Positions 263 through 63,013 of a stretch of 64,000 bases of DNA are shown here, piece after piece. Both the position numbers and the translations under genes were made by a program. How positions within the stretch are numbered: the first letter of the stretch is position 1; the number at the start of each line of letters is the position of its first letter. The notes below the pieces were generated by a model. The model was not told the DNA's origin and ran no database searches. It saw nothing but the letters and a program-made list of their open reading frames with translations. This DNA is from Reclinomonas americana ATCC 50394 (Eukaryota), in contig PS015296.1 of NCBI GenBank assembly GCA_048213135.1, positions 73,073-137,072 of the forward strand, read 5' to 3'.

Positions 263-700
263 CTGCATGAACGGCTGCTTCATACGATTGACACGCGGAA
301 CTGCACCAGGAGAAATGCGATTGACGAGATCACACAGCACCCTGAGTGAAATGCGAGTGTGAGCATTTGTGTACACGCACTGCTGCATCAGTGTGCTGGA
401 CGCAACAAGCCATCCTTCAAGTGCTCCTCAAACGACGAGGTGAAACGCTGTCCAGTCACCGCCTCAATCCACGCCTGTGCATCACGCTCGCCCTCATCTC
501 CGCGCTTCGCCTGCTGCTTGCCGTACAGCTCGCGGTCAACTCCGTAAATGGGAACGCCTGTGTGTGTGCGTGAGAAGAAGACGAAGAGAAGAGATGGACA
601 TCAGTGACCATCACGAACACACAAACACACACACTCGTTTAAGAGACTGTGACAAACCATCGGGGCGTTTCTCCGCGTCCTCGTAATTCCGGTAAGCCAT
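263..700 (-). CDS. Calponin/transgelin-family CH-domain protein, 5' part (3 exons seen; continues beyond window start)
   Basis: Spliced translation MAYRNYEDAEKRPDGVPIYGVDRELYGKQQAKR...AQAWIEAVTGQRFTSSFEEHLKDGLVLCDLVNRISPGAVPRVNRMKQPFMQ. This matches the calponin N-terminus and the CH motifs WIE.VTG and LKDG..LC.L.N...PG. Introns are GT-AG. Confidence 0.85.
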
Positions 701-1724
701 GGCGTTTGTGTGGAGTGTCAGAGAGTGTGTGAGCGACGTCGGCGTGTCCTCTCTGACAATGCGCTTTTTCTTTCTTTCGGCGTCTTTGTGTCTCTGGCGC
801 GCGCGCGCTGACAATAAACAGTCGATGTGGCGAGTGGCGTGCCACGGATGTTGCGCTCCTCTCTGTCTGCGTTTTTCCGAGACCATGTCGACGTTCATTC
901 AACGAAGTCGCTTTGTGATGAACTGATGATCGGCGCCACACCACACCAGCCTTATCCTTCACCCCAGCAGCTAGTGCAAGCATGACTGCCGCTTTGCCTC
1001 ACACGCGAGGCGACCGTCGACGCTTCTTCATTATTCCGTCGACCGGCAATCCATCGATCACTCACTTCTCCCCTACAGCACACTCCGGTGAGTTTATCAC
1101 GACCTCCACACGCACGTCAGGCACAGGCGCCGCACGATTGCGCGTAGAGAGTAGCTTGTTCAGTGGAGTACTCGTGCGTGTGGTGTGCTGTTTGCGGTGT
1201 GCGTTGGGGCGTGGGCGATGCGAGCGTACATGTGCATGTCCAATGCGCGACGCAGCCTCCCCCTCGCCCCCTCTCTCCCTCTCTTCGCACGTGTGTTTTT
1301 GATGCACATACCACGTCTGCGTGCGTGTGTTTTGTGTCTGTGGTCAACTTTGTGTGTTGCGAGAGTGAGAGTGAATCGAAAAGAGTCAGGGTAGGTGCCA
1401 TGGCTCTCACTCTGCACACTCTGCGCGTTCCCTCTCCTCTCTCGCGCTGTGGATTCTCATGTATAGTCGCGCGTGTGTTGCGTTCGTCTCGCACACTTAT
1501 GTCACCCTTGTTTGTGATTGACAGTGACGACAGTGAGTGATGTGATCAGCGTGTGTCGCACTATCCTTCATCGTGCACACGACTCGCGCATGGCAGTGGT
1601 GGTGTCGTTGTTGTTGTCCTCATGGTCTCCATGCGCATTCAAGTGAGAGAGGAGAGAAGAACGAGTGGTTCACGCTGCCATGTTTGACCCGTGCACTCAC
1701 TCTTCCCTTGTTTGCGTGCAGATC

Positions 1725-2316
1725 ATGGGCAAGAACCCTGGCAAGAAGCAAAAGTTGGCTCCGGTGGTGACCCGCGAGTTCACCGTGCACCTGCACAAGC
1801 GCCTGCACAAGACGTGCGTGCCACCCTCGACTCTTGTCATGATGTGAGAGTGAGACTGACCATTCTCGTCTCGTCTCTTCCTACGCGCAGCAACTACCGG
1901 TACAAGGCGACCCGCGCCATCCGCGAGCTCAAGGAGTTTGCGGAGCAGCAGATGGGAACCAGCGACAACCGTGTCGGTGCGCTGACTCTTGTTGTTGTGG
2001 ATATGAATGATGATGACTCTCGTGCTTACTTTGTTTCCGTCGTGCAGACGTGGAGCTCAACCAGGCCATCTGGCGATACGGTGTGCGCCGCGCACCTTTC
2101 CGCATCCGCATTCGTTGCTCACGCAAGAAGAAGGAGGATGAGGTCCGTGTCGCACCGTAGTCTTCGTGTGACTGATGTTTCATGCATCTCACCGTCGTCC
2201 GTGATCAACAGGAGGGCGACGCCGAAGCTGGTCTCTACACCCTCATCTCGTACGTGCCGGTGCAGAAGGGCGAGTTCCACGGCCTGACCACCAAGACTGT
2301 GGACTCGGAGGCATAA
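1725..2316 (+). CDS. RPL31: 60S ribosomal protein eL31 (4 coding exons)
   Basis: MGKNPGKKQKLAPVVTREFTVHLHKRLHKT|NYRYKATRAIRELKEFAEQQMGTSDNRV|DVELNQAIWRYGVRRAPFRIRIRCSRKKKEDE|EGDAEAGLYTLISYVPVQKGEFHGLTTKTVDSEA*. Hallmark L31 motifs are present, with three GT-AG introns and a TAA stop. Confidence 0.97.
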
Positions 2317-2736
2317 GCTCCCTTTGTGTGTGTGTGTCTGTGTGTTGGGTGGCGTGACAGGATCATTGTGTTTTGCGGGTGACATTGGGCCGGTGGTTTC
2401 TTGCTGGAGTATGAAGGGGGAGATCTCTGTCTCTTTCCTCGTTCATCTGCGGCATCACCGCGTCCACAAACGCTTGACAGAGTGAGAATGAATCGCCGTG
2501 TGCGCTCGTCGGGAACATCATTTGTTGTGTGCGAGGAATGCTGTCCAGTTGTCGAAAGAGAGTCGAGTTCCCGATGAGCCAACCTTCACCGATACTCGCG
2601 TCCCCCTTCCTATCTCCTCAACTGGACCACATCCCACAATCCTCACATGTGCACCGGAGAGAGGGTCACAAACGCGGCACGGAATCCGGCATCGACTGTC
2701 GCTCTTGATCGACGAAACTCACCATCGTTCACTCTC

Positions 2737-5343
2737 ATGTCGGCGCCGACACCTCTGCCTCCACCCCCTCCACCCCCTGCCAGTGGTGGTGGCGGTGATG
2801 ACTACTACGACGGGCACCGAGGAGGAGGAGGAGGACGAGGAGGCGGTCGCGCACGAGGAGGAGGAGGCGGACGCGCTCGCGGCGAAAGAGGAGGAGGAGG
2901 AGGAGGAGGATATCGCGGTCGCGGTGGGCGCGGAGGCCGTCCATGGCTGGTGGCCGCAGTGCCCGAGTTCGACACACCACCACCACCTGCGCCACCACCA
3001 CCGACAGCAACGGAAACAGCAGCAGCCGATGGAGGCGAGGGAAGCGCGCGAAAACCGCGTGAGCCCTCACGATGCCCGCAGTGCCCCGAGACCTTTGCAA
3101 CTCCACGCCAACTCACCGCGCACCAGCGCGACACTGGCCACGGTGTGTGCCCGCACTGTCAGCGCAAGTTCAAGCAGTACTTTCGCCTGCAGAAACACAT
3201 CAAGTTGGACCACACGGGTGATGGTGGTGAGTGCATTGTTGGTCACAATGTGGCGTGTGGCTAATGTGTGTGCTGAGCAGGCCCAGGTGCAGGCGCAGGC
3301 GATGAAGGCGCGCCACCTGCGGTGCAGGCGCGACCTAATCGACGCGAGCGACAGGGGAGGCGTGAGGTGATGATGGTGCCCGCGGATCCACAAGGCGAAG
3401 TGGTGGTCCGCGAGATGCGGGAACGTGCACCGCGTCGGCCTCCGCGAGTGGTCCGTGTGGATCGTGTGCCGTCGGCTAGAGGGCAGCGCCAGCCAGCCAT
3501 GATACCGGTGGGCGGTGGCGGTGGCGCATCGGTGAGTCTATTTTGCAGCTGTGTATCGGTTGGTACTCACTGTTGCGCATCGACAGGCCGACTCACAAGC
3601 GACTGCGCGGTTTGCGTGCACGCCGGAGGAGGTGGAGGCGGAGATTGTCGCGTACCGATCACGGCCTGGTGCGGCGCCGCTGGGGAGCAGCGTGCAGCAG
3701 GTGTTGGACAGCACGGTGGAGAGATTGTTGCGGGAGCGGCGGCAGATTGCGGAGGCGGCGGAGCGGCTGCGCGTGTTCATCTCCGAGTTCATGGAGCCCA
3801 CTGTTGCCGATGCACTGGGAGACGCCGGTGCCACAGTGCATGTGTTTGGCTCGGCGGGATCGGGCTTGTGGCTGCGCGGTGGTTCCAGCGATGTCGACAT
3901 TTGTGTGGAGGTGCCCGGATGCACGTCGAAAAAGAAGCAGATTGCCGTGCGTCTCGTTGGCTATCGCCCATGCCTGTTGTATTTTGCCACCGCTCACTCA
4001 CGCGACGGCGTGTGTCGCAGGCGCTCAAGGCACTCCGCACACAAGTGCGCAAGAACATCAAGGCGTGGTACAGCTATCGGTCGTTGCGTCGCTTTCACGT
4101 CAGCCATGCAATCACCCCTTATTCTCTCACCCCCCATCGGCGCAGATTCGTCGACATTGAGTTGGTGGCGCACGCGCGAGTGCCGATCATCAAGTTCAAG
4201 CATCCGACCGGCTTCGAGTGCGACATTTGTATCAACAACATGGCGGCCGTGCGCAACACGATGCTCTTGCGGCAGTACACAGAGGTGAGTTCACTTCTTC
4301 TTTTTGTCAGCAGCACTCGCCCTGGCTCACTCTCTGCCCGGGTACACAGGTGCACGGGCTGGTGCACGATCTGATTGTGGTGATCAAGAGCTGGGCCAAG
4401 GCGCGCGGAATCAACTGCCCGCGCGAACAGACACTCTCCTCGTACTGTCTGTCGTTGATGGCGGTATCGTTTTTGCAGCACGCCGGACTGCTGGGCGTCA
4501 TACCATGCGAGACCATGAGCTCGGCCGACGGCGAAGAGTTTGTGGATCTCGACGATGAGATTCAGTTGGGCGTCGGAGCAGCAGCAGTCGACGATGGCGA
4601 AGTGGAGCACGTGACGGCAGCATTGCAGGTTTTGCGAGTGGTGGACGAGTTGGGCGACGGTGATGACGATGATGACGAGGAGGAGGACGACGACGACGAT
4701 GTTGTTGATGACGAGGATGACCATGATGCGGGTGACGACGATGATGACGACGATCGGGAGTACGCGGCGAGTGGTGAGTCTCTGCATACTTTTGTGATGA
4801 AAAGAAAGTATGGAGATGTTAATGGCCATGTTCAGCTTCTGCTGCCAGCGCCTCGACGAGAACAACATCATCAACAACAACCACGGCCTCCGCCGCCGCA
4901 GCGTCGAGCTCTGCGACCGTGCATCGCATCCAAACCGAGCACGTCACCATTGGTGGTCTCGTCACTCGCTTCTTTGACTTTTTCGAGTTTGACGCACGAG
5001 CGGCTGCCGAGAGACCAGCGGGCTCGGTGTTTTGCGTGCCCACCGACGTCATGTGCGTGCGTCTCGGCTCCATTCGCTCCAAGCGCGAGGTGTGGCGCAA
5101 CATTCGGCGAGAGTTGCGTGCCCTTCGCTCCTCGTGTATGTGCTTGCGTGGTTGCTCATCACGAGGCTGTGCAGTGCGGACCGTCACTTTATCAGTGTGC
5201 AAGACCCCGTGACACCCGTCGTCGACAACGGCCGTCACGTGGATCGGCGCGCGCTCGAGGTCATTGCTGCCGAGTTCCGACGCGCGCAGCGAATCCTCCG
5301 TGAGACCGGCGACATGCAGCTGCTTTGCTCTACACGCATGTAG
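2737..5343 (+). CDS. Non-canonical poly(A)/terminal uridylyl transferase (Cid1/TUT/Trf4 family) with N-terminal RGG tract and two C2H2 zinc fingers; multi-exon
   Basis: Catalytic motifs VHVFGSAGSGLWLRGGSSDVDIC, ARVPIIKF..GFECDICINN..AVRNTMLL and IKSWAKARGIN...TLSSYCLSLMAVSFLQ. PAP-associated region ISVQDPVTPVVDNGRHV...EFRRAQRIL. Zinc fingers CPQC..H....H and CPHC..HIKLDH. Confidence 0.88.
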
Positions 5344-5475: not shown

Positions 5476-8400
5476 TCAGCGGAACAAGCGCAGCAAGGCG
5501 TTCAGTTCGTCCAGGATGAGTTCCACAGTCGGGCGCTGGTTGCGGTCGAGGCTCACGCAGCTGCATCGTGCACGAACGGGGTCAGTCAGTGTGAGAGAGA
5601 ACAGACAGCAGATGTTCATGCGCACCTGGAACCCATGCGGAAAAATCTCGTCGCCACCTCGGCAGGCCACGGACCGGCCTGCTGGTCCGCCCACGTCATG
5701 GGGTTGAAACTGGGGCCCTCCGTGTCGATCAACCTTGTGAGGACGGCACGAGCCTTCATGCCGGACAGCAACTGCAAAAAGATGACGCCCATGGCGTACA
5801 CGTCGTTTTCGACGCGGAACTTGCCGCTGCGCAGCGCCAGCGGGTCGAGATACTCGAGCGTGCCGGCAACCGTGCCCGTGCCGTGTGTCTGCGCCCGCTG
5901 AGTGTGAGCAGGACGCACACACGCAGAGGCAGAGGCAGAGTGGCGATTACCTTGGAGTCGTCGAATATCCGCGCAATGCCAAAATCACCGAGACGGGGAC
6001 GACGATGCTCGTCCATCAACACATTGGACGGCTTCAAGTCGCGATGGACAATGTTGTGCTGCACACACACAAGACACACCAAAGTGAACAACGGAAGACA
6101 GGCGCGAATGGTGCGGCGTGGTGCGCCAACTCAACTTGATGCAAGAACAAGACACCCTCCGTGACACCGTGCGCAATGCTGATGCGCTCGTACGCCGTCA
6201 GTGGCGCCACGCCAGGCGGGGTCTCCAGCAACACCTTTTCCAGATCGTGCTTGCTGCACATCATCGCAATACATGAGCAACAGGTGTCACAGGCACGGAG
6301 ACAAGCACATGCGCGAATGCACGCACCTCATTGCCTCGTACACAATGCACCGCCGACCACTGGCATCGGTGGAGAAGCCCAGCATCATCACCAAGCCCGG
6401 ATGTCTGAGCAGTCCAAGAGTGTTCATCTGTAGCACGCGCGTGTCAGTCACACAGGCGTCTGTGCGTAATACGCACACGCTCTTGGACGCAACTTCGTTC
6501 TGGAACGACGACTCGGCCCACGGCGCGTCCGAGTCAATGACCTTGATGGCCACATTCCGACTGTCGAGTTGGCACAAGTACACGGAGCCCTGACCGCCAG
6601 AGCCGACCACCAGCGACTGGTCAAAGTTTCTATCGCGCAATGTGATGATGAGTCTCGCCACCACGAGACACCGCCCATGCGCTACTGCAGCAGCACCACG
6701 CACCTTGTGGCTCGCTCAATCTCGGCCCACATGTACTGCACCACACGTCGGCTGTAGTTCTCGACTGCAGCATTTCCACAAAAGAAAAGTGAGAAAGCAT
6801 TCGACGGAGAAAAAACACTTCAACGGAGCAATCACTTACCCTCGGCCTGCAGTCGCACAACCTCACCCTCGGCGGCATCACCACGACGACGCTCCGCCAC
6901 CAGCTGCCGATTCAGGTCGGCCACCTGCGCTTCGAGTCGCTGAGCTGCCGCCTCCGCTGTGCGCAGCGCTGCCTGCAGACGATTAATGGTCTCCCGGTTC
7001 GCCTCGTCCAGTCGAAGGCGTTCGTCCGACTGCCGCAGGCGTTCGTCGTCCTGGCGAATGCGCTCCTCGAGTGTGCGTTCCTTTCTCTCCGCCAGCCGCA
7101 CACGGTCCAGTGCCTGATCCCGTGCGGCCTCTGCCTGTCGCGCACGCTCTTCGGCCTCTCGCAAAGCCGTGGCACTCGCACCGCCGCCACCACCGCCGCC
7201 ACCATGAGCCTCCAAATCACGCAGTCTTTCCTCTGCTCTCCGCCTCGCCGCGTCCTGCGAGCGTGCCATGCCCTCGGCCTCTCGCCGCGCGGCCTCCTGA
7301 TTGCGCAGACGACTCTCCGCATCTTGCAACTGCGCACGAAGCGCGGCCAGTTGTTGATCTCGCTCAAAAACGTTGCTGTCCGATCCCGACGCTGCTGCTG
7401 GCGATTGAGCTGCAGGTGGTGGGGCGACTACCATTGGCTGCGCACCGGCCGGTGCCGGTCGCGGTTGCAAGCCGGCCACGATTGCTCCTTGCGCCGCCCT
7501 AATCGATTGTGGCGGTGGTGCCACCACCACTGGTACCCGCTGTGCCTGCTGCGGCTGCGGCGGCGGCGGCTGCTGCTGGTGCTGTTGCTGAGGCGGCAGT
7601 GCGGCGACAACCGGATACCGCGCAGCGGAAGCGCTTGAGTTTGGAACTGGTGAGCTGGACTCTGCAGCACGCAGACCTGCATAAAATCGACGGTGAGTGC
7701 AAATGTACTGTGCGTGTGAGAGAGCATATTGAACAAGCGAACCCGTGTTCCACACACGAATGGTCTTGTCGTCCGAAGCCGTCACCAGGCGACCGAGAGA
7801 GGCAAAGGCCACCGACGACACTGTGCACGAATAAGTGTGAGCAAAAAACAGAGGAGCAAAATAAGAGCCTGGATGAGCACCACATACCGCGCCCCGTATG
7901 ACCCTCGACAATGGTGACCATGTCGCCCGTCAGCGTGTCGTAGACGCGGGCCGTCATACCCGCGGCCGCCGCCACAAACGCTCCATGACAGAGCGCCACC
8001 GACGACACCATCTGCGTGGAGACGCGCACCAGCCGCTCCTCCCTGCCCGTCTGCAGCGACCACATGCGCAGAGTGTGATCCGACGAGCCACTGACGACCA
8101 GATCGGCCGACACCGCCACCGACTGAATCCACGACGAGTGGCCGGCCAGCGTCTGCACCAGATCACCCGTGGCCAAGTTCCACACGCGAATGGCGCAATC
8201 GGCCGACCCGGAAACCACTTGCGAATTGTCGGGAGTCACCGCCACCGTCATGACCGAGTCGGCGTGGCCCTTCAACGAGCGCACAAACGCGCCCGTGGCA
8301 AAGTTCCACACGCCCAGCGAGCGGTCAATCGACGCCGAGACCACCAGCAGGGTCTCGCCCGCCACTCCATCCTCCGCATCGGCCGCCAGCAACTCCGCCT

Positions 8401-9087: not shown

Positions 9088-11627
9088 TCATTCTGAGGAG
9101 CGCCAGTTGCCACCGCCGAGCATTGAGGTGGTGAGTCGTCCGTTGGTGGGGTGTTGTGCAGCAGCAGCGGCTGACGGACCATTGCCGGTGGGCGTCGATG
9201 ATGCGGAGGAACCGGAGCGGTGTGTCCGCAGAGCGGCGGCTGTGCGCTCTTGCATGCTGCACACGGAAAGAGACAACATGTAAGTCTCTCTCTCTCTCTC
9301 TCTCTCTCCTCTTCTTACACACACTCGCTTCCTCGTACCTCAGCGAGCCGGGTATGAGCGTTGGTGCGCTGGAGCGGCGATCGTGGCTACCGGCGGCTGA
9401 GGTCGGCTGTGAGGGCGCCAGCAGACCGCGTGACTCGAGGTTCTTGCGCAGGATCTTTTGCGTCAGCTCCGTGTCGGTGACCACGTCGGTGGCCACCATG
9501 TCGACCTCGCGTGCACTAATGTCGCTAGTGAAGCGCGAGTGTGTGGTCTGCCGCCGCAGTTGCTTGAGGTCGCCCTCCGCCTGCGACGCGTGCTCCTTCA
9601 GGCGCTTGTTCTCCGCCAGCAAGTGGTCCAACATGCGCATCAGATCCATCTTCTCTTGTGGCGGTCGGCTTGCGCCGCTGCCGTTGCCGCTGTCGCTAGA
9701 GCCGCCCTTCAAAAACTTTTGTGCCAGTCTCAACGACTCCAGCTCCTCGTCCTTTTCGCGCAGCTGGCGCCGCAATTGGCCCACCTCCGACGCCAATGCC
9801 GCTCGTGCAGCCTCGTCCTCCGCCAACTGCATGGAAGGGGGAGGGGTCAACAACAGCGTTTTCAGAAACGAGACTCTGAGAGCGTAAAGCAACTCACCCT
9901 CCGTGCGTACAGGCTGCTTTCCGAGGCAATCTCATTAACCGTCGTCTCCTGAATGCGCAGCTCTGTGTTGGCTCTTGACAGCGAAGCCTCCGCATCGTTG
10001 GCTCGGCTCTCGGCGTCCGCCAGCTTCTGTTGCATCTCGTGCAGCTTGCGATCGTACAGCTCCTGCAGCTGCGCCAGTTCCTCACGCAACTGCGAGCGCT
10101 CCTTGCGCAAGCTCGCCTCCGCATCCCGCAACACCGCCGAACCCATGGTCCTGCAAGTCACCTTGTGTTCAGCGCGACACGCACACACACACAGCACTCC
10201 ATCGGTTCTCACGCCGCAACTGTCTGTTCTGCGTGCGATCCAACTCGCTGCGCAGCTGCGTGTTCTCCTCCTTCAGTCGGCGCCGGATGATATCCATTGT
10301 CTCCAACTTGGCGTCAATCACCATGCGCAGCAGTGCCACACTCTTTTCCACGCGCGCCGTGTTGACGCTCAGACCGCTGTCCATCGCCGCACTCACAATC
10401 GGCAAGTCGGAGCGCGTCTGCACTTGACCGGAAAACGACGGCAGGATTTCTGTGTGTGTGTGTGCGTGCATGGTAAGACTCCTCTGTTCCCACTTCGCTC
10501 TCACATGTGTGTGTGCGACGACGCAACGTCGTTGGAACGACTCGACCTCGTCGGCCAATCGTGCCAGCAATGCCGACGATGCCGAGGCCGACCTCTCCAC
10601 CGTCACGTCCTTGTCGGTGCGCGCCGAGTTCATCGACTGCACCTGGTTCAGCGACGACTCCAGATCGGCCACATGCAAGCGCAGCCGCGACACCTCGTCG
10701 CGCAGCGAGTCGACCTCGCGAGTCTTGCTCGCCAGCTCCTCCGCCTTGACGCCCTCCCGAATGTCGCGCGCCTTCTCCAAAAACGTGGATCGCGACAGCT
10801 TCAGCCGATCCAACTCCTTGCGCAACTCCCGATCGTGCTGCGTCAGCGATCCCAGCTGCGCCTTCAACAGCTCGTTCTCATTCTTCAACGACTGCACCAG
10901 CACCTCCGAGGCCGGCGACGCTCCACCCAGCGTCGACAGCATTGTCGGATGCGCACGACCCATTGACGACGCTGCACGAGGCGACGACGGCAACGCAAAT
11001 CGCAGCCCACTGGCCGTGCCCATCCCATTCCCACTAGCACTCTGCGGAGTCGCACCGCCACCACCCATCAATCGCGAGGAGGCCGGTGGAGAAGACGACC
11101 CATCGCCCAGCAACTAACATGATGACGATGGTGAGATCGATGTGCTGCACACACAAAGAGGACGAGAGATGCACGACGCAACATCGCGTCGATCGTACGC
11201 TCCACTGCCGCCACTCGTCTCACGCTCTGCACGAGGGGGAAAAAGTCGCTCAGGAAAACAACAGAGGCCATTTCACCGACGAGGCATGGCCTTGCACGCC
11301 ACGCACTCGTTCTCTCCATCTCCCTCTCTGCCTCTCTATGCATGCACACACGCCACTGCACACACACACACACAACCACGCACACTCTCTCTCGTCCCTG
11401 TCTCCGCGCCTCTCTCGCATATGCACTCACCAGCTTCCGCGACAAACATTCTCTCCTTCAATGAGCGATACTTCTCCAGCAACTCGGCGTTCTCCAAGCG
11501 CTCCAGCACACTCTCAGCCACGTCAAGAACCTTAACAGACCGAATATGAGTCAAGACACTTCCTCCGGCACGCGTTTTTTCACAATGAAACAAGCACCTG
11601 CATTGCACTCGGTTCCGCTGTCGCCAT
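9088..11627 (-). CDS. Uncharacterised long coiled-coil protein; multi-exon
   Basis: Heptad-rich exons (LKNENELLKAQLGSLTQHDRELRKELDRLK; LREELAQLQELYDRKLHEMQQKLADAE; LLAENKRLKEH) joined by GT-AG introns. The inferred start MATAEPSAMQ is head-to-head with CEP78. Some internal exon boundaries are uncertain. Confidence 0.6.
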
Positions 11628-34822: not shown

Positions 34823-34959
34823 GCTCATCGCAGCGATCGAAAAGTGATTTTGGATCGACTGTCGCTGCGCTAGCGATGTCGACGTCGAGTTGTCTCTCTT
34901 TCTCTCGACGTCGTTCATGCTCCAAAGCTGCAACAGCGATCCCAAAATTATATTAATGT

Positions 34960-37127: not shown

Positions 37128-37201
37128 TTGCGTCGACGATTAGATTGTGTTTTTTGAATCGACAGTCGATATCGATGTCGACGAGGTCCGACGAGCAGTC
37201 T

Positions 37202-37236
<35 letters not shown>

Positions 37237-37326
37237 NNNNNNNNNNNNNNNNNNNNNNNNNNNNGTGTTTCTCTTTATCGTTCAGCAAAAACGGCGTTCC
37301 CGAATTATTTTAATGCCCGGGGTTCA

Positions 37327-51700: not shown

Positions 51701-54700
51701 CTGACCGAGAATCTCGAGCAGCTGCGCATCCGACACAAAGTAGAAGCGCGGGAAGACGCCACGCTTGGCCTCCAGGTAGCCGGCCAGCGACTTTTGGCAA
51801 AACTCCAACGACTCGAGCAGCGTCTCGAGAAGCTCCTTCAGCGCCGGGTCGCTGGTCTGCTTGACCATGTTGGGGTTGTCGAGCACACCGGCCATGATCT
51901 TGCACCAGTTCTTGTCGATACCGGCAAAGCGCTTGGCCTCGGTGGGCAGCTGGCGGGCGATATCGCCACCAGAGAACACGGCCTCCAGGTAGATCCACAG
52001 CGACTGCGTGCGCAGCCACAATTCGATGACTTCCTGCGCCATGGATAGGCGCTGCACCCACTTCTGGATCTGCGCACGGAACGGCGCGTTGTACTTGTTG
52101 GAGAGCAGCGAACCGAGCGCCATCTGGGCGTCTTCGATGTTGGTCATCAACTCGCTGGTCGCCGACGGCATCAGCAACAGCGGGCCGCGGTTCTTGAACT
52201 CGTCCAGCTGCAGGTTGATGAGCGCCCACTCTTCCTCGATCTTGTTGATCTTCTCCTCGATATCGGCCTCACGCACGGCAGCGTTGCAGATTTCCTCCAC
52301 ATCGTCGGTGAAGCGATACAGCTTGGCCTCGACAATGTTGCGCACGCGGAAGTCGGTCATGGTGGGGCTCAGTTCGTAGCCCGACAGTTTCGACACGGAT
52401 TCCCAGTGACGTGCCTGAATGCGGTCGCTGGCCAGGCCAGTGAGCAGCGGCAGCGTCTCCAGGAAGTCGTTGATGGTCTGCTTGAGCTCCGTGTAGGCCT
52501 CCCAGTTGCTGAGGAGGGAAGAGGGTGAGAAGAGGGTGAGACAAAGGCAATGCAAACGGAGGGGAAGGGAGGGGAAGGGAAATATGGGAAGGGAAAGGAG
52601 GGGAAGGGAGGGGAAAATGGGACAGGGAGGTGAAGGGAATGGGAAGGGAGGGGAAAGAGCGGAAAGACATCAAAGGAGAGAGAAAGTTGAGAGTTCAACG
52701 AGGAGAGAGAGAATGAGAATGAGAAAAACAGAAAACACAAACGAACAGAACAGAAAATGAGAGCAGGTTGAGAGATTAACAAGTAAATGAAGCGAGATAT
52801 AAAAAGGAGTGAAATAGCAAGAGAGCGAGAAAGGATCAAGGACACATACAGATAGAAAAGAGAAGACATAATGCGACCCGCTACGAAACTGAAGCTGGCG
52901 GGGCAGGCGACGGCAGAGCGTCTGGAACGTGTTGAGCTTGTCGGCCATGTCTTGCACCTTGACGTCAGTCCACAGTACCTCCTCGTAGCCGGTGATGGTG
53001 ACGAGCACGTTGGTGTAGAGGTTGTAGAGCTTGCCGAGCAGGTCGAGCTCCTGGTCCAAAAAGTCCAGCTCTGGGTACGTGGTCTGCGGCAGGTTGAACA
53101 GCTGCTCACCCATCTCGTAGATCTCGCGCTTGCGCTTGCGATCCTGGTACAGACGCTCAAAGTTCTTGAGCTTCTCCACAGCCACACGCGGCTTGATGCC
53201 GGGCTGATTCGGACCCTTGTCATCGTACTCGGCCTTCAGGCGCGCGACATCTTCGACAAAGGTCTTGACGTCGCTCTCCAGCGCCTTCTTGTAGCGCGGA
53301 GCAATCTGTCGTCACCCCAGCACCGCATTGAGTCAAACCAAAAAAAGGAGGGACAAGAAGGTAAAAAGGGACGCAACATTCGACACGTGCGCCATGGTGA
53401 GACGCGACTCGTGCACCAAGTCCTTCCACTTCTTGCGGATCTTCTCCACCTCCTCCAGCTCTTCCTGCGGCACGTCGACCTTGTACTTGAGCAGAATCTG
53501 GTAGGCCTCCTCAATCGGGATCATCTTCATCTCCATGATGCTCTCCTTCTCGCGCAGCACGCCAAGGACGCTCATGAGGGCGTTGATGTCGGCCAGATCC
53601 TCCAGCTGGTCGCGCTTCATCAGCTTGCTCATCGTCTCGTCCATGTAGGTGAGGTACTTGTCGAGCTTGCCCTTGCCCTTCTGGTTGAGGGCGCTGCCGT
53701 ACTCGGTCTTCCAGGCGGCGGCCTCACGCATAAGGGCCAACTTCAGCGGCTTGATGTCGAGGCAGAGAGTGCCGATGATGTGGGCCGGCGGCAGCGCCGA
53801 CACTCGCTCAAATAGCAAGTGGTACTTCTTGACGGCCATCTCAAAGTCGTTGAGGCCGGGCTTGGAGCCCAGGAACTCAGCCATGGTCTCCTTGCGGTTG
53901 ACACGCCACAGCTCCTGATATTGGTTCAGGTCTTCCAGATACTTGAGCACCTGCGCAAGGGGGAGGGAGGAGAAGCGAGAGAGGGACAATGTCATGAGTC
54001 GTTCATCTCGGACGTTCAGGAAGGGATTCTTCGCCGAGGTAGATGGACCATGACTGTTGATTTGGCACTCGCCGTCAACCATCCCGACCGCCACCGAAGA
54101 ATTCAAGACGGGCAGGAGTAGACGCATACGGGCGGTGCCAAGGAGGGAGAGGGTGAAGGGAAAGGGAGGGAAAGGGAAAGGGAGGGGAAGGGAAGGGAAA
54201 GGGCAAGGGAGGGGAAGGGAGGGGAATGGGAGGGACTGAGGAAGAGTGAGGAAAGCAGAGCGAAAGAGGGTGTGACAGAGGGATGCGAAGAATGACAAGT
54301 TGGATGGACAAAAATGAGAGGTCAAGGGGGAAAGAGTGCAACAGAAGGGAGAGAGAAAAAGTCAGAGAAAGAGGGGACGAAGAAGAGAGACAGCGGAGGG
54401 AGGGAAACAGGGACAGACACATGCAAAAACTGAGAGATGTGAAGGAAACAGGGAGTGAACAGAGAAAGAGAGGAAATGACAAGAGAGAAGAGATCTCTGT
54501 GTCCTCCACCCGCGCCCCCCACCCTCCCAACACTCAACTGTCTTGGAAAGCACGGCAGCGGAGCCAGTCAGCTGCAGGAACGTCTTGATGATCTGACGGT
54601 TGCGGCCGAGCTCAAAGTACGCGTTGCGCAGGCCCTCCAGCGCCTCCGGCGTCTGCTGCTGCGGTCGCTTCTGGCCCCAATACAAAATGTACTTGGTGGC

Positions 54701-57700
54701 CTCCAGCATGATACGCGCAGTCTTGTTGATGCATCGCTGCACCTCCTCCAGGGACGGGTCGATCACAATGTCGGGCACTTGCAGGTGCACCTCGGCCTTG
54801 AAGACGGGCATCGACAGCGACAGGAAGCCGAACGACTTGTACGAGATGCGCGACTTGAGGCTCTGCGCACTGCGGCGCAGCGAGTCGATGCAGGAATCGA
54901 CGGCGACCTTTTGGTAGTGCGACACAATTGCCGCGCAGTCCAGGCGCACCTCCTGCACCTCCTCTGCCGCGTACTGGTGGGTCAGCAGCGCCACCAGATC
55001 GTTGGCCGCCGACTCCATTTCGGCGCTCTTCAAGTCGATCGTCTTGGCGGCCTTGATCGATGTCTCCGACTGCAGCTCGATGAAGTCGCTGATGGAGAGC
55101 GTCTCCGGGTGGTTCAACTCGACAAACAGCGTGTTGCCGATGCACCGCGCATTGGCCTCCAGGCGGTTCGCCACAATGTCGTTGGACTGTGAGGAGACAA
55201 GGGTAAGCTAAGGTGCGAAGGAAATGAGCAGAAGGAAATCGTTCTGCAGACCTTGCTGACGAGCTCCTCCAGGCGGCTGATGGCGCGGACGCATTGCGTC
55301 GTGTAACCGTCAATGTTCAGCGAGGACCATGTGAGGGAGATGAGGCCCTGTGGGGGAGGAGTGTGAGAAGGAGAAGCGAGAGGGAAAAAGGAGAAGGGAG
55401 GAGGAGAGGGAGAGAGGAGAGGAAGGGGAAGGGGAAGGGGAAGGNNNNNNNNNNNNNNNNNNNNNNNNNNNNNNNNNNNNNNNNNNNNNNNNNNNNNNNN
55501 NNNNNNNNNNNNNNNNNNNNNNNNNNNNNNNNNNNNNNNNNNNNNNNNNNNNNNNNNNNNNNNNNNNNNNNNNNNNNNNNNNNNNNNNNNNNNNNNNNNN
55601 NNNNNNNNNNAGAGAGAGAGAGAGAGAGAGAGAACAGGGCGGACTTGCAGCCAGCTCAAACGCAACTGGGGCAATCACTTCGTCCACACGAGCAATCATG
55701 TTGCGAAGCAGACTGGCGTACACAGGCTGGACCATGCTGACCACGCGATCGTACTCGCTGATCATGTAGTTGAGGCTCGACGAGTATTTCTGCAAGCAAG
55801 TCAGACTCTTCCTCCTGCTCTTCCCTCCCAATCCATCCCACCCACAACGCACCTTGATCTTGCTCTTCTGCAGGTACACGGTGTGCGCCGACTCGGGGAT
55901 CTCCAGACCCATGTCGTCGAGCAGCTTGATCTCGCGAATCAGTTGCAGGATTTGCAAGTCAAAGTTGACCAGGTACTTGTTGGTGGAGGGGTCGCGGACC
56001 ATCAGCGTGGCCAGGAGGCCATCCCGCGCAGCCGCCACCGCCTCGCACCAGCCGTTGTACCACACCTCCTCGAACTGCACGAGGGCGCGGGCCACGGTGT
56101 TGTAGGCCTTGACAATGCGGCGGCTCTCGACGAGCTTCACAATGTAGGTGTTCTGGAAGTGGAGCATCGGGCCCTCCAGCTTGCGCAGCATCTGGCGCGC
56201 CCACGCAATGCTGCCGGCCACCGGCGGGTAGTTGCGCGGGAAAGGCGGGTGTGTCTTGAGGCGCTCGTACGACTTTTTGAAGTCCTCAATCACCTGTCCG
56301 TACTTGTGCCACAGGTGCAGGTGCTTCTCCTCCAGCGTGCGCTGCACAGCAGAGTGAGGGAGAGAGGGAGCGGGAGAACAAGAGCAGCAGGGCACAACTC
56401 ACATTCAGCGTCTCGCGATCAAAGGCCGCCTTGAATTGCTTCCACAGGTGCAGCGACGGCTCAATCTTCATGTTGTCGGTAAAGGCATGTGAAATAAAGG
56501 CGATGCAGTCATTCTCCAGCTCGAGAATCGACAGGTTGAAGGTGGCGTAGTCGGTCTCGAATTCCTGCTTGCGCGGGTCGAGGAAGTCGTACTTTTTCTT
56601 GCGGAATTCGCTCACGATGCGGCGGTACTGATGAGGAGAAGGGTGAGACATGGTAGAAGGGAAGGGGAGGGGGAGGGGAAAGGGGAAAGGGAGGGGAGAA
56701 GGGGGAGGGCAAAGGGGGGAGGGGAGGGGAAAGGAGAAGAGGAGGTAAGACGAGAAAGGAGAAGGGAGAAGGAGAAAGGGAAAAGAGATGAGATGGGGAG
56801 GAAAACACAGAAGGGAGAATGGAAGTAAGGAACAAACAAACAAACAAAGAGAGAGAGAATGAAAGGAAGAAAAAGAGAAAGAAAGAAGACGAGACAAGTG
56901 TCGATGAAACAAGGGACTTTGCCGCTCACCTGATCAACCAGCGGCTGCATGCCCTCGATCACACTCTCCTCAATGCCAGCGAATTGCTTGAGGGTGGTGA
57001 ACAGGTCGATCAGCTTCTGGAGACGGCGGCAAAACACGTCAAACTTGCCAAAGATGGCGGCCTCGGAGCAGTCAAACTGCTTGCCCGACGGGTTCTGCTG
57101 CAGCTCGTACTTGGTCTGCCGGTACTGCGACTGGTACTGATCGTACAGGTCGATGCAGTGGTGGCACTTCTCAATCAGCTTCACCGGATCCTGCTCCCAG
57201 ATCGACGTCTCATGACCGCGAGCGCCGCCCAGGCCGCTGGCCGTGGTGCGCATCGGCTCGTAGACGGTGAGGATGTAGCCCTTGCAGCAGGCAATCATCT
57301 GGTTGGTGATCTTGACAAACAGTGCCGTCAGGCGCTCCGAGGTGTTGTAGTAGCGCGAGATCGAGTGGATCATGCGGATGGCGTTGAGGAGGCCAGGGAG
57401 ACCGGCGGACACTAAAATGGGGGAAGGGTGAAAAGGGGATGTAAGGGCGAGGGATGAGAGAAGCGAAGAAGAAGAGAAAAGTAAGAGTACGCGCACACAG
57501 AGAGACAGGATGGAAGAGAGCACAAACAGCAAAGAGACAACGCACACAACAGGGGGCACTCAGATGTTCGGAGCGTTGCGCATCCAACACGTAGTGATCC
57601 AGGGCACACACATGCACACTGATTCTTTCCACATACTCCACACTACGCCCTCCACCTTCCCGCACGCACCTTGCGCTGGATCGTTGCGGTACAGGGGCTC

Positions 57701-59875
57701 GCTGAACTTCTCCAGTGTGTCGAGGTACTTGACATTGTCCTTGGCCTCGTTGGCTGCGTCAGTCAGCTGCTTGTCGAGCTCCATCCACTTTTTGAGGTAG
57801 CGCGACTTGGCATTCATCAGCAGCGACAGCACCATCTGCACGGAAGCACAGTGAGCATGCATGTGCCCACATCACCCACACCAACTATCTGTCCTCTCTC
57901 TCTCTGCATACCTTGACGGGCCGGCTCTTGAGCTGCTCGACCACGCCGTTGAACTTGGCCATGCGCGCCTTCCAGTATTCCAGCTCGGCGCGTGGGCCCG
58001 CATTGTCGGGCTCCGAACGCACGGCGGTGCCCTCGGCAAACGCCACCTGCAACTGCTTCTTCCACTCCTGCAGAATGGCCTCGTAGCGCTCGACCGTCGT
58101 CGGGTTCTTGGCGGCCTGGGCCAGTGCCGTCGGCGTGTCGTCCAGCATCTCGTCCGGTCGCAGCTTGCGCAACTGCACGCCAGCGGCCACGGCCTGGGAG
58201 GCCTCGCCGAGGGTGGACACGAAGCGCTCCAGCGACTCCATGAACGAGAGGATCTCGCCAATCTGCGCCGGGCCGTCCTCCTGCGTCAGCTCGCCCCAGT
58301 TGCTCTGGTTGCGCAGTGCCGGCACCATAACCTGTGCGGCGATCAAGAGTGATGAGCGAACACACACACACACACACGAGAGGGGTGACGAGTAGGAGGG
58401 CTGGCAAACCTCGGTGAGGCGCTTGCGCAGCTCATTGAGCACGTCCTTCTCCACGACGCCAAACAGCAGCTCGGCGTCCATGTTTTGTGCCGACAGCGCA
58501 CGGGTGCCGGCGCGCAAAAAGTACACACCCACCGCCGTGCCACGCAGCGGCAGTGCCTGATCGCCAGTGGCCACACCGAAACGGTGACCCTGTCGCGACA
58601 CACCAATGTACCGCTCGCCGAGCACGACGGGTGGTGGTGCAGAGCCGCTGGCGCCATTGGCGCGCGGTGAGTCACCACTCGAGTCCGAGTCGTCGCTGTT
58701 CTCCGCAAAGTCGCCCATGGAGCCTGGAGGGGAGGGGAGAGGAGAGGAGAGGGAGAGGAGAGGGAAAGGGTGAGCAAGTTGATACGGAGGCGAAGAAACG
58801 GGTCATGGACAGGAGTCGACCACACAACAACCACATACATTCTCACTCCCGCAACAAGCCTCCAGTCTAACGCACTCCTCTGCTCTTTGGCGACTCTAGC
58901 AGCAGCACCAAGAAGTCTCCATTCATACTCACTTCTCTCTGCCCAACACTCGCATCTCAACGCCCTCCATGCTTGAGACGCAGCCACACTTCCCCATCTT
59001 CTTCTCTGCCCATACTCTCCCCACGCACTCCACTCTCTCCTTCTCGCACCACGCACCAGCGGCCGCTAATACGCTCAACGCCCACTCTATACTCTCCGTC
59101 TCCAACGCCGCCACATCACAATCACAGCACCTTCAGCCCAGTCCACCCTCCAACGACCCACGAGCTGCCGCCTCTGCCACCACCAACTACACACCGTTCT
59201 CCACCACTCACAGCCTTTGCCGCAGCCACAAACTCACTGCTCTCTGTTCTCTCACCGACCAGCCGCCATCACAATTCCACCTCAAACTCACTTCCCGCAC
59301 TCACAACACCCACTCTACTCCGTCTCCTACCGCCTCAGCTGCCACCAACTCACGACTCCATCCCTCCTCCCATTCTACCCCCCTTCTCCCAACACCCACC
59401 AGCCACCGCCACATCATAAAGCCCACCGCAAACTCACTCACAACACCCATTCTCCTCCCCATCTACCCCCCTTCTCCTCCCCTTATCATGCCACTCACCC
59501 GCCGCCCGCAAAACATCTCAACACCCACTCTCCTACCGCCTCTGCTGCCACCAACTCACTACTCCCATTCTCCTCCCCGTCTACCCCCCTTCTCCTCCCC
59601 TTATCATGCCACTCACCCGCCGCCGCCTTTGCCGCCGCCGCCGCCGCCGACGCCGACGCCGTCGACGCAGAGCCGCCACTGCCTTCATCTCCCTCCGCCG
59701 ACGCCTCGCCATAATAGACCACAAATAGCCTCCTCAGCGCCGTGTCGGCGACAAAGTGCTTGATGGCGTCGGCCGCCGCATCGTGTCGCGTAAAGAAATC
59801 ATCAACGGCGGCGCGCGGGCACCGAAAGAACTCGGTGATTTTCGACAGGAACCATGTCACTCGAGGGTCCGCCAT
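39711..59875 (-). CDS. DNAH5: Axonemal outer-arm dynein heavy chain, gamma/DNAH5-DNAH8 class; complete, many exons
   Basis: DHC_N1 [33 protein letters not shown] and [20 protein letters not shown]. Linker [26 protein letters not shown]1 [12 protein letters not shown]...NCSDQMD; P2 GPSGAGKS; P3 [10 protein letters not shown]4 [14 protein letters not shown]. Stalk/MTBD present. C-terminus [18 protein letters not shown]5 versus DNAH8 cannot be distinguished outside vertebrates. Confidence 0.95.
53987..54141 (-). ncRNA. Candidate intronic box H/ACA RNA (hairpin-H-hairpin-ACA) in a dynein intron
   Basis: On the sense strand: hairpin 1 TTGGCAC-CGCC-CGT...ACG-GCG-A-GTGCCAA with an inner TCCTG-CCGTC-TTGAA/TTCGG-GGCGG-CGGGA stem; ANANNA box AAATCA; hairpin 2 GTCATG-GTC-CATCT...AGATG-GAC-CATG; then ACA plus 3 nt. 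It is a complex island within an otherwise CT-rich intron. Confidence 0.55.
59081..59624 (-). repeat. Degenerate tandem repeat in dynein intron 1, including a ~60-nt duplicate of the exon1/intron1 junction
   Basis: 59446-59506 and 59564-59624 share cccattctcctcccc.tctacccccc.tctcctccccttatcatgccactcacccgccgcc. Related units occur near 59081, 59306 and 59521. Confidence 0.8.
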
Positions 59876-60323
59876 GATACTAAGAGAGAGACACACACAC
59901 GCAAACACACACACGCGCGTGAAAGTGAGACAGAGAGCGGGTGATCGTTGGCGCGCAAAACACACACAAAAAAAGTCTCATTTTCGCACTGTCTGTTACA
60001 CACACGCACACGCACACGCACGCACACGAGGAGACGCACACACACACGCGCGTGTGCGTGCGAGATGACACAACACAAACACACGCGCGCGCGCCATGTT
60101 GCAAGAAACGCACGTACCACTGTGTAAACCCTGCGCAAATGTGCCGCGCTCACTCTGCTTCTTGCACACACACACACGCGCGCGTGCTTGTTGTGTGTCT
60201 GTGTGTGTGAGAGTGTGCGTGTGCTCTGAGGCAGCGAGTTGGTTGTTGTTTTCGTTGTGGCGTTGTAGGTTGCGTGGCTCGCACTGTCCCGCACTGTCCC
60301 GCGTTTTGATCTCTCACACAAAC

Positions 60324-63013
60324 ATGGCGGCGTCGGCATCACGCGCATGGTAATGTGCTCTCTGAGTGGGCGAGAGTGCAGAGGAGTGCAGAGAGAGAGG
60401 GGAAAAAGTGTGTGAGTTGTGCGTGAGTTTGACATGTGACATGTCTCAGTTTAGACACTCTCTCTTCTTCTCTGTCTGTGTGTGCGTGTGTGTGTGTGTC
60501 TCTCTTGTGCTCTTCAAGTGTCTGTCTCACTCGCATATGCACTTGCTCTTGCATTTGCATGCGAATGAGTGAGTCTGATGAGAGAGAAGAGAGAGAGAAG
60601 AGAGAGAGAGGGAGAGTGTTTGAGTGTGAGTGTGAGTGTGAGTGTGTGTGTGTGAGAGAGCGTGTGTGCCTGTGTCTATCTTCTCACTCACTTGTGCACT
60701 CTCTTTCATTTGTACTTTCTCTTGAGAGTGTGATTGCAAGAGTGTGTGTGTGAGAGAGAGAAAGAGAGCAGAAGGGAGTGAGGCCCACACAAGGGGAGAG
60801 ACAGGCAGATGCACACACATGCAATCTCTTCACTTCTCTCTCTCACTCACTTTTGCTCTCTTCTTGAAGGGCGGACTCTGATCTTGGAGAGGATGACTTT
60901 GGTGTGGAGCGATTTGCGACTGGGCCGGATGAGAACGGCATCAAGACGATTACGGAAGTGCGGTACACGAAGACGGGCGAGAGAGTCAAGGTTGGTGGCT
61001 GGGGGACAAGGAGGGAGGAGAGGGAGACTGAGTCGAGATTCTTGCGCTTGAATGCTCACAAGCAGCGTATGCACTGAGGAATCATAGTTGTCTTGATTGA
61101 GCAGTGATTGTTTGCGCGTTGTGTGCGTGTGCAAATGCCTGTGAGCTGTAACGTTGACTCTGATGTGTGTCGTCGTGCATGCACTGAGGAATCGTAGTCG
61201 TGTCTAGATTGTGTGTTGCTCGTCAAGCACCCACGATCAGAGAGGCTGTGTGTCAATCTTGATTGGAATCACCATTGTTCTGCTTGGGCGTCTTGCATTG
61301 CCGTCGAGTGCAGCAGAGTCACTCTGAGCTCGTATGCTGAGACAAGTCTTTTCCTTCACGCCATGCTGAACAGCGCTGAGCTCGCACGACGAGCAACTCT
61401 TGTCGCTGTTCTTGGCTCGTTTTTTGTGTGTTCTTTCGTAGTCGTCCTTGGTTTGCACAGAATATCTCGGCGTGATGCGTCGCAGTAATACCTCCTTGCA
61501 CGTCTCGCATGTTTTCGCTCCGCATTGCAATCTTGTCTCCCCTTCCCCTCCCTTGCCCCTTATCCCCCCCTTCCCCCTCCCTTCCCCCAGCACGTTCAAA
61601 CCTTCCGCGTGTCCTCCCGCGTGAAGCGCGTGAAGAAGAGCGTGGTGGAGCGACGAGACATGCGCAAGTTTGGCCTGCAAGACAACTCGGTGGAGGGACC
61701 CGAGGAGCGCATCACCGAGGTGACCGATCCGATTCCGTTCGCGCTCACCACCCGCAAGAAGCTGGAGGCCAAGAAGGAGGAGCCGGATCTCATCAAGAGA
61801 ATCAAGGACTTTGCCGCACAGTCAGGTTTCCAGCAGAGGTCGTGGCGCGACAAGGCCAATGCGGTGGCGGCGGAGGAGGCTGCGGCGGCGGCGGTGGAGG
61901 GCAGCGGGCGCTACGTGCCACCCAGCATGCGTGGTCTGGCGTCGGGAGAGGCACCAAAAGGTTTATTATTTTCTGCGCTTTTCATGTTCAGATGTCTTGT
62001 TCTCACTCCCCGTCAAACCGCAGACATTGCCAAGATCCGCATCACCAACTTGCCCGACATTGAGGAGGACGAGCTGCGCCACCTGTTCGGCTCTGTCGGC
62101 AGCATCAGTCGCGCGTTCATTGCCCGCGATCGCGACACTGGCGAGCCACGTGGCTACGCCTTTGTCACCTACTACTCACGAGACGAGGCACAAAAGGCGA
62201 TTGACAAGTTTGATCGGTATCCGCTGTACAATCTCATTCTGCACGTCGAGTGGACAACAAAGTTGCGGAGGGGGAAAGGGTGGTACCTGACGGGTCTCTC
62301 TGCTTGTCATCCTCTGTGCGTCGCTCTCTATCGCTCATCGCCCGTCTGCCTCTCACTCTCTCTCTCTCTCTCTCACTCTCTCTCTCTCTCCACCTGCTTG
62401 TTGCTATCCCTCGCCTTCTGTTCGCCGCTTGCGTTCGTTCGTCTCCTGCGCATCGCTCTCCGTGCATGTTTTCTGTCGGTCGCTCGTTCCTTGTCCGTCG
62501 CTCGTCGCCAATTGTTTTCCGTGTCTCACTCTTTCTCATTCGGCTCCTATGTGTCATCTGCCGCTCTCTCCCGCAAATCTAATCCACCTCTTCGTTCCTC
62601 TCCATCCTTCTCTTACTCTCTCTCTCTCTCTCTCTCCTCCTGCGTGTCGCTGTCGCTCGCCTTCTGTTCGTCGCTCGCTTCGCTGGTCGCCAGCGCGTCG
62701 CTCTTTACTCATCTCCGGTGCGTTTCTCTCGGTGCTCGTTCCCTGTCGGTCGTCTTGTTCGTCGCCTGCTGTTGCTCGTCTCCCGTCAGGCTTCCCTCGC
62801 GTCACGTGCATGTCATCTGCGCGCTCTCCGTCTATCTTTTCCACCTCTTCATTCCTCTCCATCCTTCTCTCTATTTCGCTCTACACTTGCCTGTCGCTAT
62901 CACTCGTCCAGTCTCCCTTGACCCTTCCGCCTATCCTCTCCCTTCATTTGTCACTCCCCTTTTCCCTCCCATTCCCGATTCTCATCCTCTTCTCTGTTCC
63001 CGCGCGCAGCTAA
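60324..63013 (+). CDS. EIF3G: Eukaryotic translation initiation factor 3 subunit G (5 exons)
   Basis: MAASASRAW|ADSD...GPDENGIKTITEVRYTKTGERVK|...VVERRDMRKFG...GRYVPPSMRG...KIRITNLPDIEEDELRHLFGSVGSISRAFIARDRDTGEPRGYAFVTYYSRDEAQKAIDKFDRYPLYNLILHVEW (RRM). The last coding exon is C-TAA at 63010-63013. Confidence 0.93.

Follow-up and report, generated by a model that had tools for sequence, protein, structure and literature searches.

Which bases mark the start of an intron when the exon before it does not end in G? This question is raised by a 64,000-nucleotide (nt) stretch of the genome of Reclinomonas americana ATCC 50394 (GenBank assembly GCA_048213135.1, contig PS015296.1, positions 73,073 to 137,072 of the forward strand; the whole stretch is called the window, and coordinates are counted from its first base), in which many predicted introns begin with GTTGCG(T), rarely with GTTGAG or GTTTCG, and have G at +6 and a base other than G at -1, the last exon position. 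We refer to these donors as S-class, and a slash marks the cut between exon and intron. Our answer is that they probably belong to major-type (U2-type) GT-AG introns with a discrete second class of 5' splice site, GUUGCG(U) preceded by W (A or U) or C, which is read in an offset register.

Genes were predicted with a Viterbi parser that combined codon log-odds (trained on the tblastn segments of a dynein gene), an acceptor matrix and a length term, and that was blind to the exon bases at the donor. GTTGCG was already the commonest intron start in the first parse, which had no donor model beyond GT, and it was the top donor hexamer when acceptor and length terms were trained and any GT was scored equally (23 of 251 predicted introns; -1 base A in 9, C in 6, T in 8 and G in none), with GTGCGT at 16 (11 after G) and GTGAGT at 12 (9 after G) in the same donor-model-free parse. 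With a learned donor table for +3 to +6, GTTGCG opened 26 of 164 introns and GTTGAG two more. S-class donors made up 39 of 173 introns in one parse, which missed four further sites, and by these predictions the class accounts for about 20-25% of the introns in the window, or about one in four or five. The first-pass annotation had listed 37 such sites, and we found the motif at the first G given for every one of them (32 GTTGCG, 3 GTTGAG, 2 GTTTCG), with A, C or T and never G at -1. Six extra donors, at 5113 and 23226 on the plus strand and at 10220, 33546, 35846 and 38244 on the minus strand, bring the class to 43, or to 37 once the paralogues in an array of F-box genes are removed.

Nor does the motif occur at chance frequency: a third-order Markov chain predicts 14.0 copies of the heptamer GTTGCGT over the two strands, and there are 35, a 2.5-fold excess, of which 27 are donors. 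The other eight comprise two copies in coding exons (10090 and 8722, minus strand), one inside another intron (11182, minus), one paralogous donor that was later accepted (35846, minus) and four that are intergenic, in untranslated regions or antisense; one of these last four, at 60269 (plus strand, tag/GTTGCGTGG), lies about 55 nt before the start codon of the eIF3g gene, with no AG in between. The two coding-exon copies, within ..RSQLREEL.. at 10090 and ..WQVACS.. at 8722, both follow A and have no predicted splicing, which indicates that the heptamer alone is insufficient.

The link to the last exon base is close to absolute. In the comparison set of ordinary donors (introns of 50-140 nt, n = 117) G stood at -1 in 75 cases, while none of 39 S-class donors, or of 33 without the paralogues, had it (Fisher P = 2.5e-12), and the count across the whole S-class set was 0 of 43. 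Seen from the exon, the class takes 39 of the 81 donors that follow a non-G end and none of the 75 that follow G. The split of donors by -1 base, proposed in the first-pass annotation as a check and made here for the window only, gave 57 G and 29 non-G exon ends for donors with G at +5, and 4 G and 44 non-G ends for those with G only at +6 (Fisher P = 1.7e-11). Taking into account the phase of each intron and the base composition by codon position (35%, 18% and 41.5% G at the first, second and third), we expected 12.5 of 39 S-class donors to follow G, where none did (P = 1.8e-7), and 10.8 of 33 after removal of the F-box paralogues, again with none seen (P = 1.5e-6). Donors that also start with GTT and have G at +5 (GTTTGT, GTTCGT, GTTTGC) follow G in 11 of 12 cases; for GTTTGT and GTTTGC together the count is 8 of 8. 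Among phase 0 S-class introns the -1 base was T in 7, A in 5 and C in 4, giving 12 of 16 with A or T where third codon positions have 21% A+T (P = 7e-6), and this excess over codon bias suggests that A or U at -1 is actively preferred, beyond the avoidance of G. On the other side, GTTGCG copies that were not called donors have G before them in just 7 of 57 cases, and with so low a background part of the depletion of G at -1 is background.

In their 3' ends, branch-like motifs and lengths the S-class introns look ordinary. All 40 sites with an assigned acceptor begin with GT and end in AG; the 3' end is CAG in 34 of 39 S-class and 104 of 117 ordinary introns, a branch-like YTNAY motif occurs in 36 of 41 and 92 of 117, and the median lengths are 71 and 73 nt. 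In-frame read-through is impossible, by frame or stop, for only 30 of 41 of the introns. Excision of the class introns brings back the reading frame and an alignment collinear with the homologues, in keeping with the first-pass view of them as spliced introns. The U12-type 5' end consensus is RTATCCTT. We rejected a U12-type identity for these introns, which start with GTTGCG, GTTGAG or GTTTCG and not with RTATCCTT.

The composition of the two classes suggests how such a site could be read. S-class donors have G at +4 in 95%, C at +5 in 91%, G at +6 in 100%, T at +7 in 77% and G at +9 in 44% of cases, and ordinary donors have T at +6 in 53%, G at +8 in 44%, C at +4 in 42% and A at +4 in 28%; the T at +7 and G at +9 of the S-class mirror the T at +6 and G at +8 of the ordinary class, displaced by one. 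The earlier description of the motif as the usual one with an extra T therefore holds for the downstream positions, which are displaced by one, but not for the composition, since 37 of 43 sites read GTTGCG and the share of C at +5 is more than the ordinary share at +4. The commonest ordinary hexamer is GTGCGT, which also pairs weakly with standard U1. The S-class layout would then correspond to this commonest donor, G/GUGCGU, moved one base into the intron: the first G of the intron would fill the slot of the exon-end G, the U would fill the slot of the G at +1, and UGCGU would follow in step. The recognition machinery (U1 early, probably U6 later) would read the site one nucleotide out of register, and cleavage would still be set at GU by the catalytic core and the U5/exon contact in the normal register. 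Sites of this kind would be used where the exon lacks G at -1 and selected against where G is present. Because the exon position -3 is in the normal register and the intron positions are displaced, we propose an offset on the intron side only. An offset register of this kind is plausible in outline and is the outline best supported by the sequence, and its reader could be standard U1 with help, U6, a variant small nuclear RNA (snRNA) or a protein.

Several observations weigh against this reading or against a simple slip on standard U1. The sample is one 64-kb stretch, with 43 class sites of which about 37 are independent after removal of the F-box paralogues. The four donors in the +6 G group that follow G are a mis-parse at 18468, G/GTAACG at 19520, G/GTCTCGT at 18264 and G/GTTACG at 13738; of these, the donor at 18264 (plus strand, flippase gene) is supported by homology (771 vs 694); its exon ends in G, its +6 and +7 bases are G and T, and it may represent another kind of one-base offset, one that does not obey the non-G rule, and the donor at 13738 is predicted and unvalidated. 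On the exon side, position -3 fits the ordinary -3 profile over the -4 profile (log-likelihood -39.6 vs -48.7) and is unshifted, which a simple slip on standard U1 would not give, and G at S-class -1 (0 of 33) is rarer than G at ordinary -2 (24 of 117, P = 0.002). Duplex energies were computed with ViennaRNA for the standard 11-nt U1 5' end as printed in the available part of PMC4856993, which may differ from the host's own U1. With this U1, GUUGCGU after a non-G base reached -0.6 to -1.6 kcal/mol in duplexes of 3-4 base pairs at best, less than the -2.2 to -2.7 kcal/mol of ordinary GUGCGU after a non-G base; G/GUUGCGU, which was never seen, reached -4.4 kcal/mol, so that G at -1 would strengthen pairing; and the rare A/GUUGAGU, at -5.1 kcal/mol, pairs better than GUUGCGU. 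Neither a shifted nor a bulged register of standard U1 predicts the near-absolute G at +4, C at +5 and G at +6, the A or U at -1 and the lack of G there, and pairing to U10 of U1 does not predict the preference for A or T at -1 in phase 0.

Two simple forms of the offset fit poorly. A pure shift of the whole helix was rejected, as it disagrees with the exon side, where the -3 profile is unshifted and G at -1 lies below ordinary -2. The bulge +2/+3 register holds -1 opposite C9 of U1, so G at -1 should help and would be tolerated or favoured, and the opposite was seen (0 of 43). Of the mainstream splicing code that the first-pass annotation proposed as compensating for the missing -1 G, what stands is a major class tied to non-G exon ends; the unshifted exon -3, the narrowness of the motif and the weak pairing with standard U1 do not fit a simple slip.

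The alternative that survives best is a dedicated partner in place of a slipping standard U1: a protein that recognises the sequence, or a variant U1 (or another snRNA) whose stretch for binding 5' splice sites matches GUUGCGU by complementarity. It would suit a motif far more rigid than that of ordinary donors, in which C at +5 is demanded though unable to pair with standard U1, the duplex energies with that U1 lie close to zero and order the variants incorrectly, and the -1 preference (A or U over C, never G) is unlike what pairing to U10 or C9 of U1 would predict. The ordinary GUGCGU donors likewise pair poorly with standard U1, however, so weak pairing is not specific to the class, and the 64-kb window contains no snRNA gene at the Rfam gathering score. 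The 5' end of U1 is among the most conserved stretches of RNA, which also counts against a variant. We regard a dedicated partner as possible though rather unlikely, and its fuller form, two parallel 5' splice-site codes in which the standard machinery serves one and W/GUUGCGU is served by a dedicated partner incompatible with G at -1, as slightly more doubtful again. At E values up to 0.1 the snRNA search of the window returned chance-level matches only, five of them on the GA/CT hairpin of the intron at 46172-46399. In this intron (minus strand) a long arm rich in GA precedes one rich in CT, and the two are able to fold as a hairpin, to which plant microRNA-precursor families of Rfam match with E of 0.001-0.05, far under their gathering scores.

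All readings so far place the cut before GTTGCG. If these were instead GC-AG introns cut three bases further in (..GTT/GCGT..), with exons ending in GTT, the frame would be kept at every site. For the dynein and flippase genes we ranked all GT/GC-AG pairings that keep the frame and lie no more than 30 nt away by how well they match the five best homologues. At least one homologue was available for 15 of the 18 S-class sites in these genes, and the listed cut ranked first at 14 of the 15 and eighth at 41480. In a wider scan of 11 sites, in which any GT or GC within 24 nt was combined with any AG up to 200-600 nt away, the S-class donor came first at 15628, 16017, 18414, 22362, 22902 and 52889, tied at 17430, and did not come first at 19692, 54538, 41480 and 40678; at 41480 and 40678 exon-skipping solutions were favoured by the short flanks used. 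The GC-AG cut equalled the GT-AG cut at 17430 when the acceptor was also moved by 3, but scored lower at all other tested sites (485 vs 466, 1018 vs 963, 252 vs 226, 430 vs 379 and 360 vs 324), and it would need 40-odd exons with identical last three bases and leave a poor GC donor context, which makes it very improbable. In the alignment of P0001, a dynein from a metagenome whose segments are 45-94% identical, consecutive residues meet without a gap at 51566/51491 and at 49659/49597, and both meeting points coincide exactly with C/GTTGCG.

A uniform start motif and lengths of mostly 61-87 nt could also point to mobile introns (introner-like elements) of one family that spread recently and share a 5' end. 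The S-class lengths match those of ordinary introns, however, and an all-against-all comparison of intron interiors gave 9 matching pairs, of which 8 lie in the F-box array and the ninth is 18 nt between two ordinary introns; we consider such a family highly unlikely. The F-box array itself (32660-39400, minus strand) consists of three tandem F-box/LRR-like paralogues with shared intron positions and exons about 85-95% alike, and each copy has an S-class donor at three intron positions, with GTTGCG invariant in all (3 x 3). Exon conservation runs up to the boundary, gives way to indels and low identity inside the introns and resumes at the CAG, a pattern which indicates that GTTGCG is under selection in these introns. 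The array is thus a convenient place within the window to see which bases of an intron selection maintains.

Moving the cut by a single base (..HG/TTGCG...AGN/) would give exons ending in G and introns starting with TT, restoring the G at -1. Among 22 sites tested, this slide leaves the messenger RNA unchanged at 9, where the next exon starts with G, and changes no residue at 19692; of the 12 slides that change a residue, the GT-AG cut scores higher at 8 and the slid cut slightly higher at 4. The slid cut creates a stop codon at 22902 and has worse homology at 15628 (30 lower), 22362 and 42779. As the first-pass annotation had noted for many sites, the downstream exon begins with a non-G base, which we found at 29 of 39 and which limits a slide to a TT donor; the exon -3 base fits the unshifted profile, and the 3' ends read CAG in register. 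A non-G first intron base is, to our knowledge, incompatible with established spliceosome chemistry, and we find the slide scarcely credible.

A gene-modelling artefact or chance is hardly tenable either: the automatic parse was wrong in places (e.g. 18404/18468, 6476 and 52877), misplaced the S-class donors at 6493, 18414 and 52889, and some listed sites are weakly anchored, but the motif emerges without a donor model, is 2.5 times as frequent as the Markov chain predicts, opens an intron in 27 of its 35 copies, has its cut placed by homologues of two large genes that are unrelated to each other, and is conserved across paralogues.

With the second splice-site class as our preferred reading, the individual sites are given here gene by gene. 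In the dynein gene, on the minus strand, homology ranks the S-class cut first at 40122-40189 (C/GTTGCGTG; 158 vs 156), 40902-40974 (T/GTTGCGTT; 224 vs 209), 41125-41187 (T/GTTGCGCA), 42209-42270 (A/GTTGCGCC), 42705-42779 (C/GTTGCGTC; the slid cut scores 14 lower), 53306-53377 (T/GTTGCGTC), the 228-nt intron at 46172-46399 (T/GTTGCGTA; LCFSP/VGEKF, 1018 vs 963), 49592-49661 (C/GTTGCGTC; P0001 segments abut, 750 vs 719) and 51492-51565 (C/GTTGCGTG; P0001 residues 149/150 abut). At the 381-nt intron 52509-52889 (A/GTTTCGTA) the GTTTCG donor beats the donor of the parser by 521 vs 460 and is the best of 294 alternatives. The intron at 40601-40678 (T/GTTGCGTC) appears in both parses and has no informative homologue, and that at 41415-41480 (A/GTTGCGTG) is also in both parses, with homology rank 8 and exon-skipping alternatives higher, so that homology does not confirm it. 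Two further dynein sites are candidates: 54430-54538 (A/GTTGAGTG), from the learned-table parse, lies in a poorly conserved stretch where homology is uninformative and has an in-frame rival donor 15 nt upstream, and the donor at 55660-55666 (A/GTTGCGT) opens an intron that enters the N gap at 55445-55610.

In the flippase gene, on the plus strand, the cut at 15628-15690 (T/GTTGCGTG ... TAG) is the best of 36 alternatives against the homologues (430 vs 379; the slid cut loses 30), and those at 16017-16079 (T/GTTGCGTG; wider scan 360 vs 324) and 22362-22424 (T/GTTGCGTG; 306 vs 266, the GT-AG reading retaining a conserved F) rank first by homology. At 17430-17502 (A/GTTGCGTG), found in both parses, the cut scores 502, and so does a GC start that lies 3 nt further on and is paired with an acceptor 3 nt further on. 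The donor at 18414-18481 (A/GTTGAGCA) is the best of 64 alternatives (409 vs 360); which acceptor it uses is uncertain, as a CAG nearer the donor, at about +50, would also serve. The intron at 19692-19766 (T/GTTGCGTT) is in both parses and ranks first by a small margin in a poorly conserved stretch, and that at 22902-22974 (A/GTTGCGAT) is supported by homology in both scans, the slid cut giving a stop codon. Further along the same strand, the S-class introns at 23120-23187 (A/GTTGCGAT; both parses, outside homologue coverage) and 23226-23294 (A/GTTGAGTG; both parses, not in the first list) follow. Also within the flippase gene, at 16590-17330 (plus strand), some 750 nt of low-complexity sequence rich in purines (GA/GGA) have several frames open and are probably one long intron amid introns of 60-80 nt.

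In the F-box array, on the minus strand, the nine sites fall into three groups by intron position. Group A, supported by paralogy and parse, has 32917-32979 (A/GTTGCGTT), 35223-35283 (A/GTTGCGTT) and 37590-37675 (A/GTTGCGTG). Group B has 34246-34316 (T/GTTGCGGT; parse and paralogy), 36544-36630 (T/GTTGCGTG) and 38950-39010 (T/GTTGCGAT), the last two in both parses and by paralogy. Group C, absent from the first list, has 33479-33546 (A/GTTGCGTC; both parses and paralogy), 35786-35846 (A/GTTGCGTG; acceptor placed via paralogy) and 38176-38244 (A/GTTGCGTC; donor-model-free parse and paralogy).

The remaining sites are scattered over other genes. On the minus strand, a calponin-homology gene has the motif at 406 (342-406, T/GTTGCGTC ... 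CAG), where the DG-LV-LC spacing across the junction is what we take to be the calponin-homology domain motif, and a kinase gene has 6059-6135 (A/GTTGAGTT; both parses) and 6428-6493 (A/GTTGCGTC), for which the unforced parse took a GTGCGT 17 nt downstream instead and the presumed spacing of the kinase motifs favours 6493. Also on this strand are 10151-10220 (A/GTTGCGGC; both parses, not in the first list) and, in a coiled-coil gene, 10450-10527 (C/GTTGCGTC; both parses). The plus-strand sites are 4083-4145 in a TUTase/nucleotidyltransferase-like gene (C/GTTGCGTC; found by the parses), 5113-5174 (A/GTTGCGTG; both parses, not in the first list), 12833-12910 in a CEP78-like LRR gene (C/GTTGCGCA; both parses), and 31260-31328 (T/GTTGCGTT ... 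TAG) and 32394-32455 (C/GTTTCGTG) in the gene that the first-pass annotation named Shulin, both by motif check and parse. A 748-nt, CT-rich candidate at the 3' end of eIF3g, 62262-63009 (plus strand, A/GTTGCGGA), is anchored only by an otherwise endless frame and weakly so, as removal of the intron leaves one codon and a stop. In our model of eIF3g (60325-63013, plus strand) the ATG lies at 60325, well upstream of the site given earlier, with an intron that opens with GTAATG after it and exon 2 at about 60870-60990; at the other end, the 748-nt CT-rich intron is apparently the last, with just one codon and the stop behind it.

The window is gene-dense, with a G+C content of 51-60%, five N gaps of 28-421 bases each, and numerous short introns of about 72 nt in the median. 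Its genes include those for a ribosomal protein, a nucleotidyltransferase-like protein, a coiled-coil/WD40/kinase protein, a CEP78-like LRR protein, a P4-ATPase (the flippase) and eIF3g, together with the three tandem F-box-like paralogues and an axonemal dynein heavy chain of about 20 kb on the minus strand, which has at least 52 introns. In sequence searches an eIF3g exon had no match, an exon of the CEP78-like gene matched at 28-39% identity only, and the best match of a dynein exon was a metagenome protein. Long low-complexity tracts rich in CT, GT or CA occur in intergenic and intronic positions at 1-260, 59000-59700 and 62300-63000.

A literal text search of the literature for GTTGCG, GTTGCGT, GUUGCG and GUUGCGU matched primers, aptamers and microRNAs and no paper on splicing; logos and supplements lie outside such a search, and an earlier description, for example in a genome paper, may exist. 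The available part of PMC2396436 makes no mention of variation of the U1 5' end. Gene finders with a single donor matrix will misplace S-class junctions, as our own parse did at 6493, 18414 and 52889. The class would also offer a natural system for the question of how the spliceosome sets the cut if recognition and catalysis occupy different registers, for the trade-off between the exon-end G and intron positions, and for a possible co-evolution of snRNAs or of U1C/LUC7-type factors.

Several known systems resemble the S-class in part. For atypical 5' splice sites in human, Roca and Krainer reportedly described in 2009 a U1 register shifted by +1, and a bulge +2/+3 register of U1 pairing is said to have followed from Roca et al. 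in 2012. According to the available part of PMC4856993, the shifted and bulge +2/+3 registers are proven for rare human sites, with 68 human sites predicted for bulge +2/+3 (Tan et al. 2016) and all validated noncanonical registers together making up 1.5% of 201,541 human 5' splice sites. Like the human shifted register, the S-class has GU plus an extra base, G and U at +6 and +7, a non-G exon end and a cut that stays at GU. Unlike it, the S-class concerns about 20-25% of the introns in the window and not a handful of sites, reads GUUGCGU where the human sites read GUUAAGU, pairs weakly with standard U1, excludes G at -1 and leaves exon -3 unshifted. With the bulge +2/+3 register it shares one extra U after GU and remaining positions in step with the consensus, whereas the bulge favours G at -1 and the S-class has none in 43.

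Parker et al. reportedly described in 2022 two anticorrelated classes, exon-strong AG//GU and intron-strong //GURAG, tied to U5 and U6 contacts. The S-class likewise pairs a weak exon end with a strong, rigid intron motif, but those two classes share one register, whereas the intron motif of the S-class sits one base off and its split at -1 is all-or-none. Irimia and Roy are said to have reported in 2008 rigid GTGCG(T/C) donors and ACTGAC branch sites in Ostreococcus, a grammar that our ordinary class resembles in its commonest donor GTGCGT, its CTGAC/CTCAC branch-like motifs and its short introns; this genome differs in being intron-rich, and a GTTGCG class is not known to have been reported in that work. 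Noncanonical registers themselves are thus known, as is a trade-off between exon-end and intron positions. What differs here is how often the class occurs, how rigid its GUUGCGU is and how it depends, all or none, on the final base of the exon: a donor that is probably read one base off, a rare exception in human genes, is the single commonest intron start in this window.

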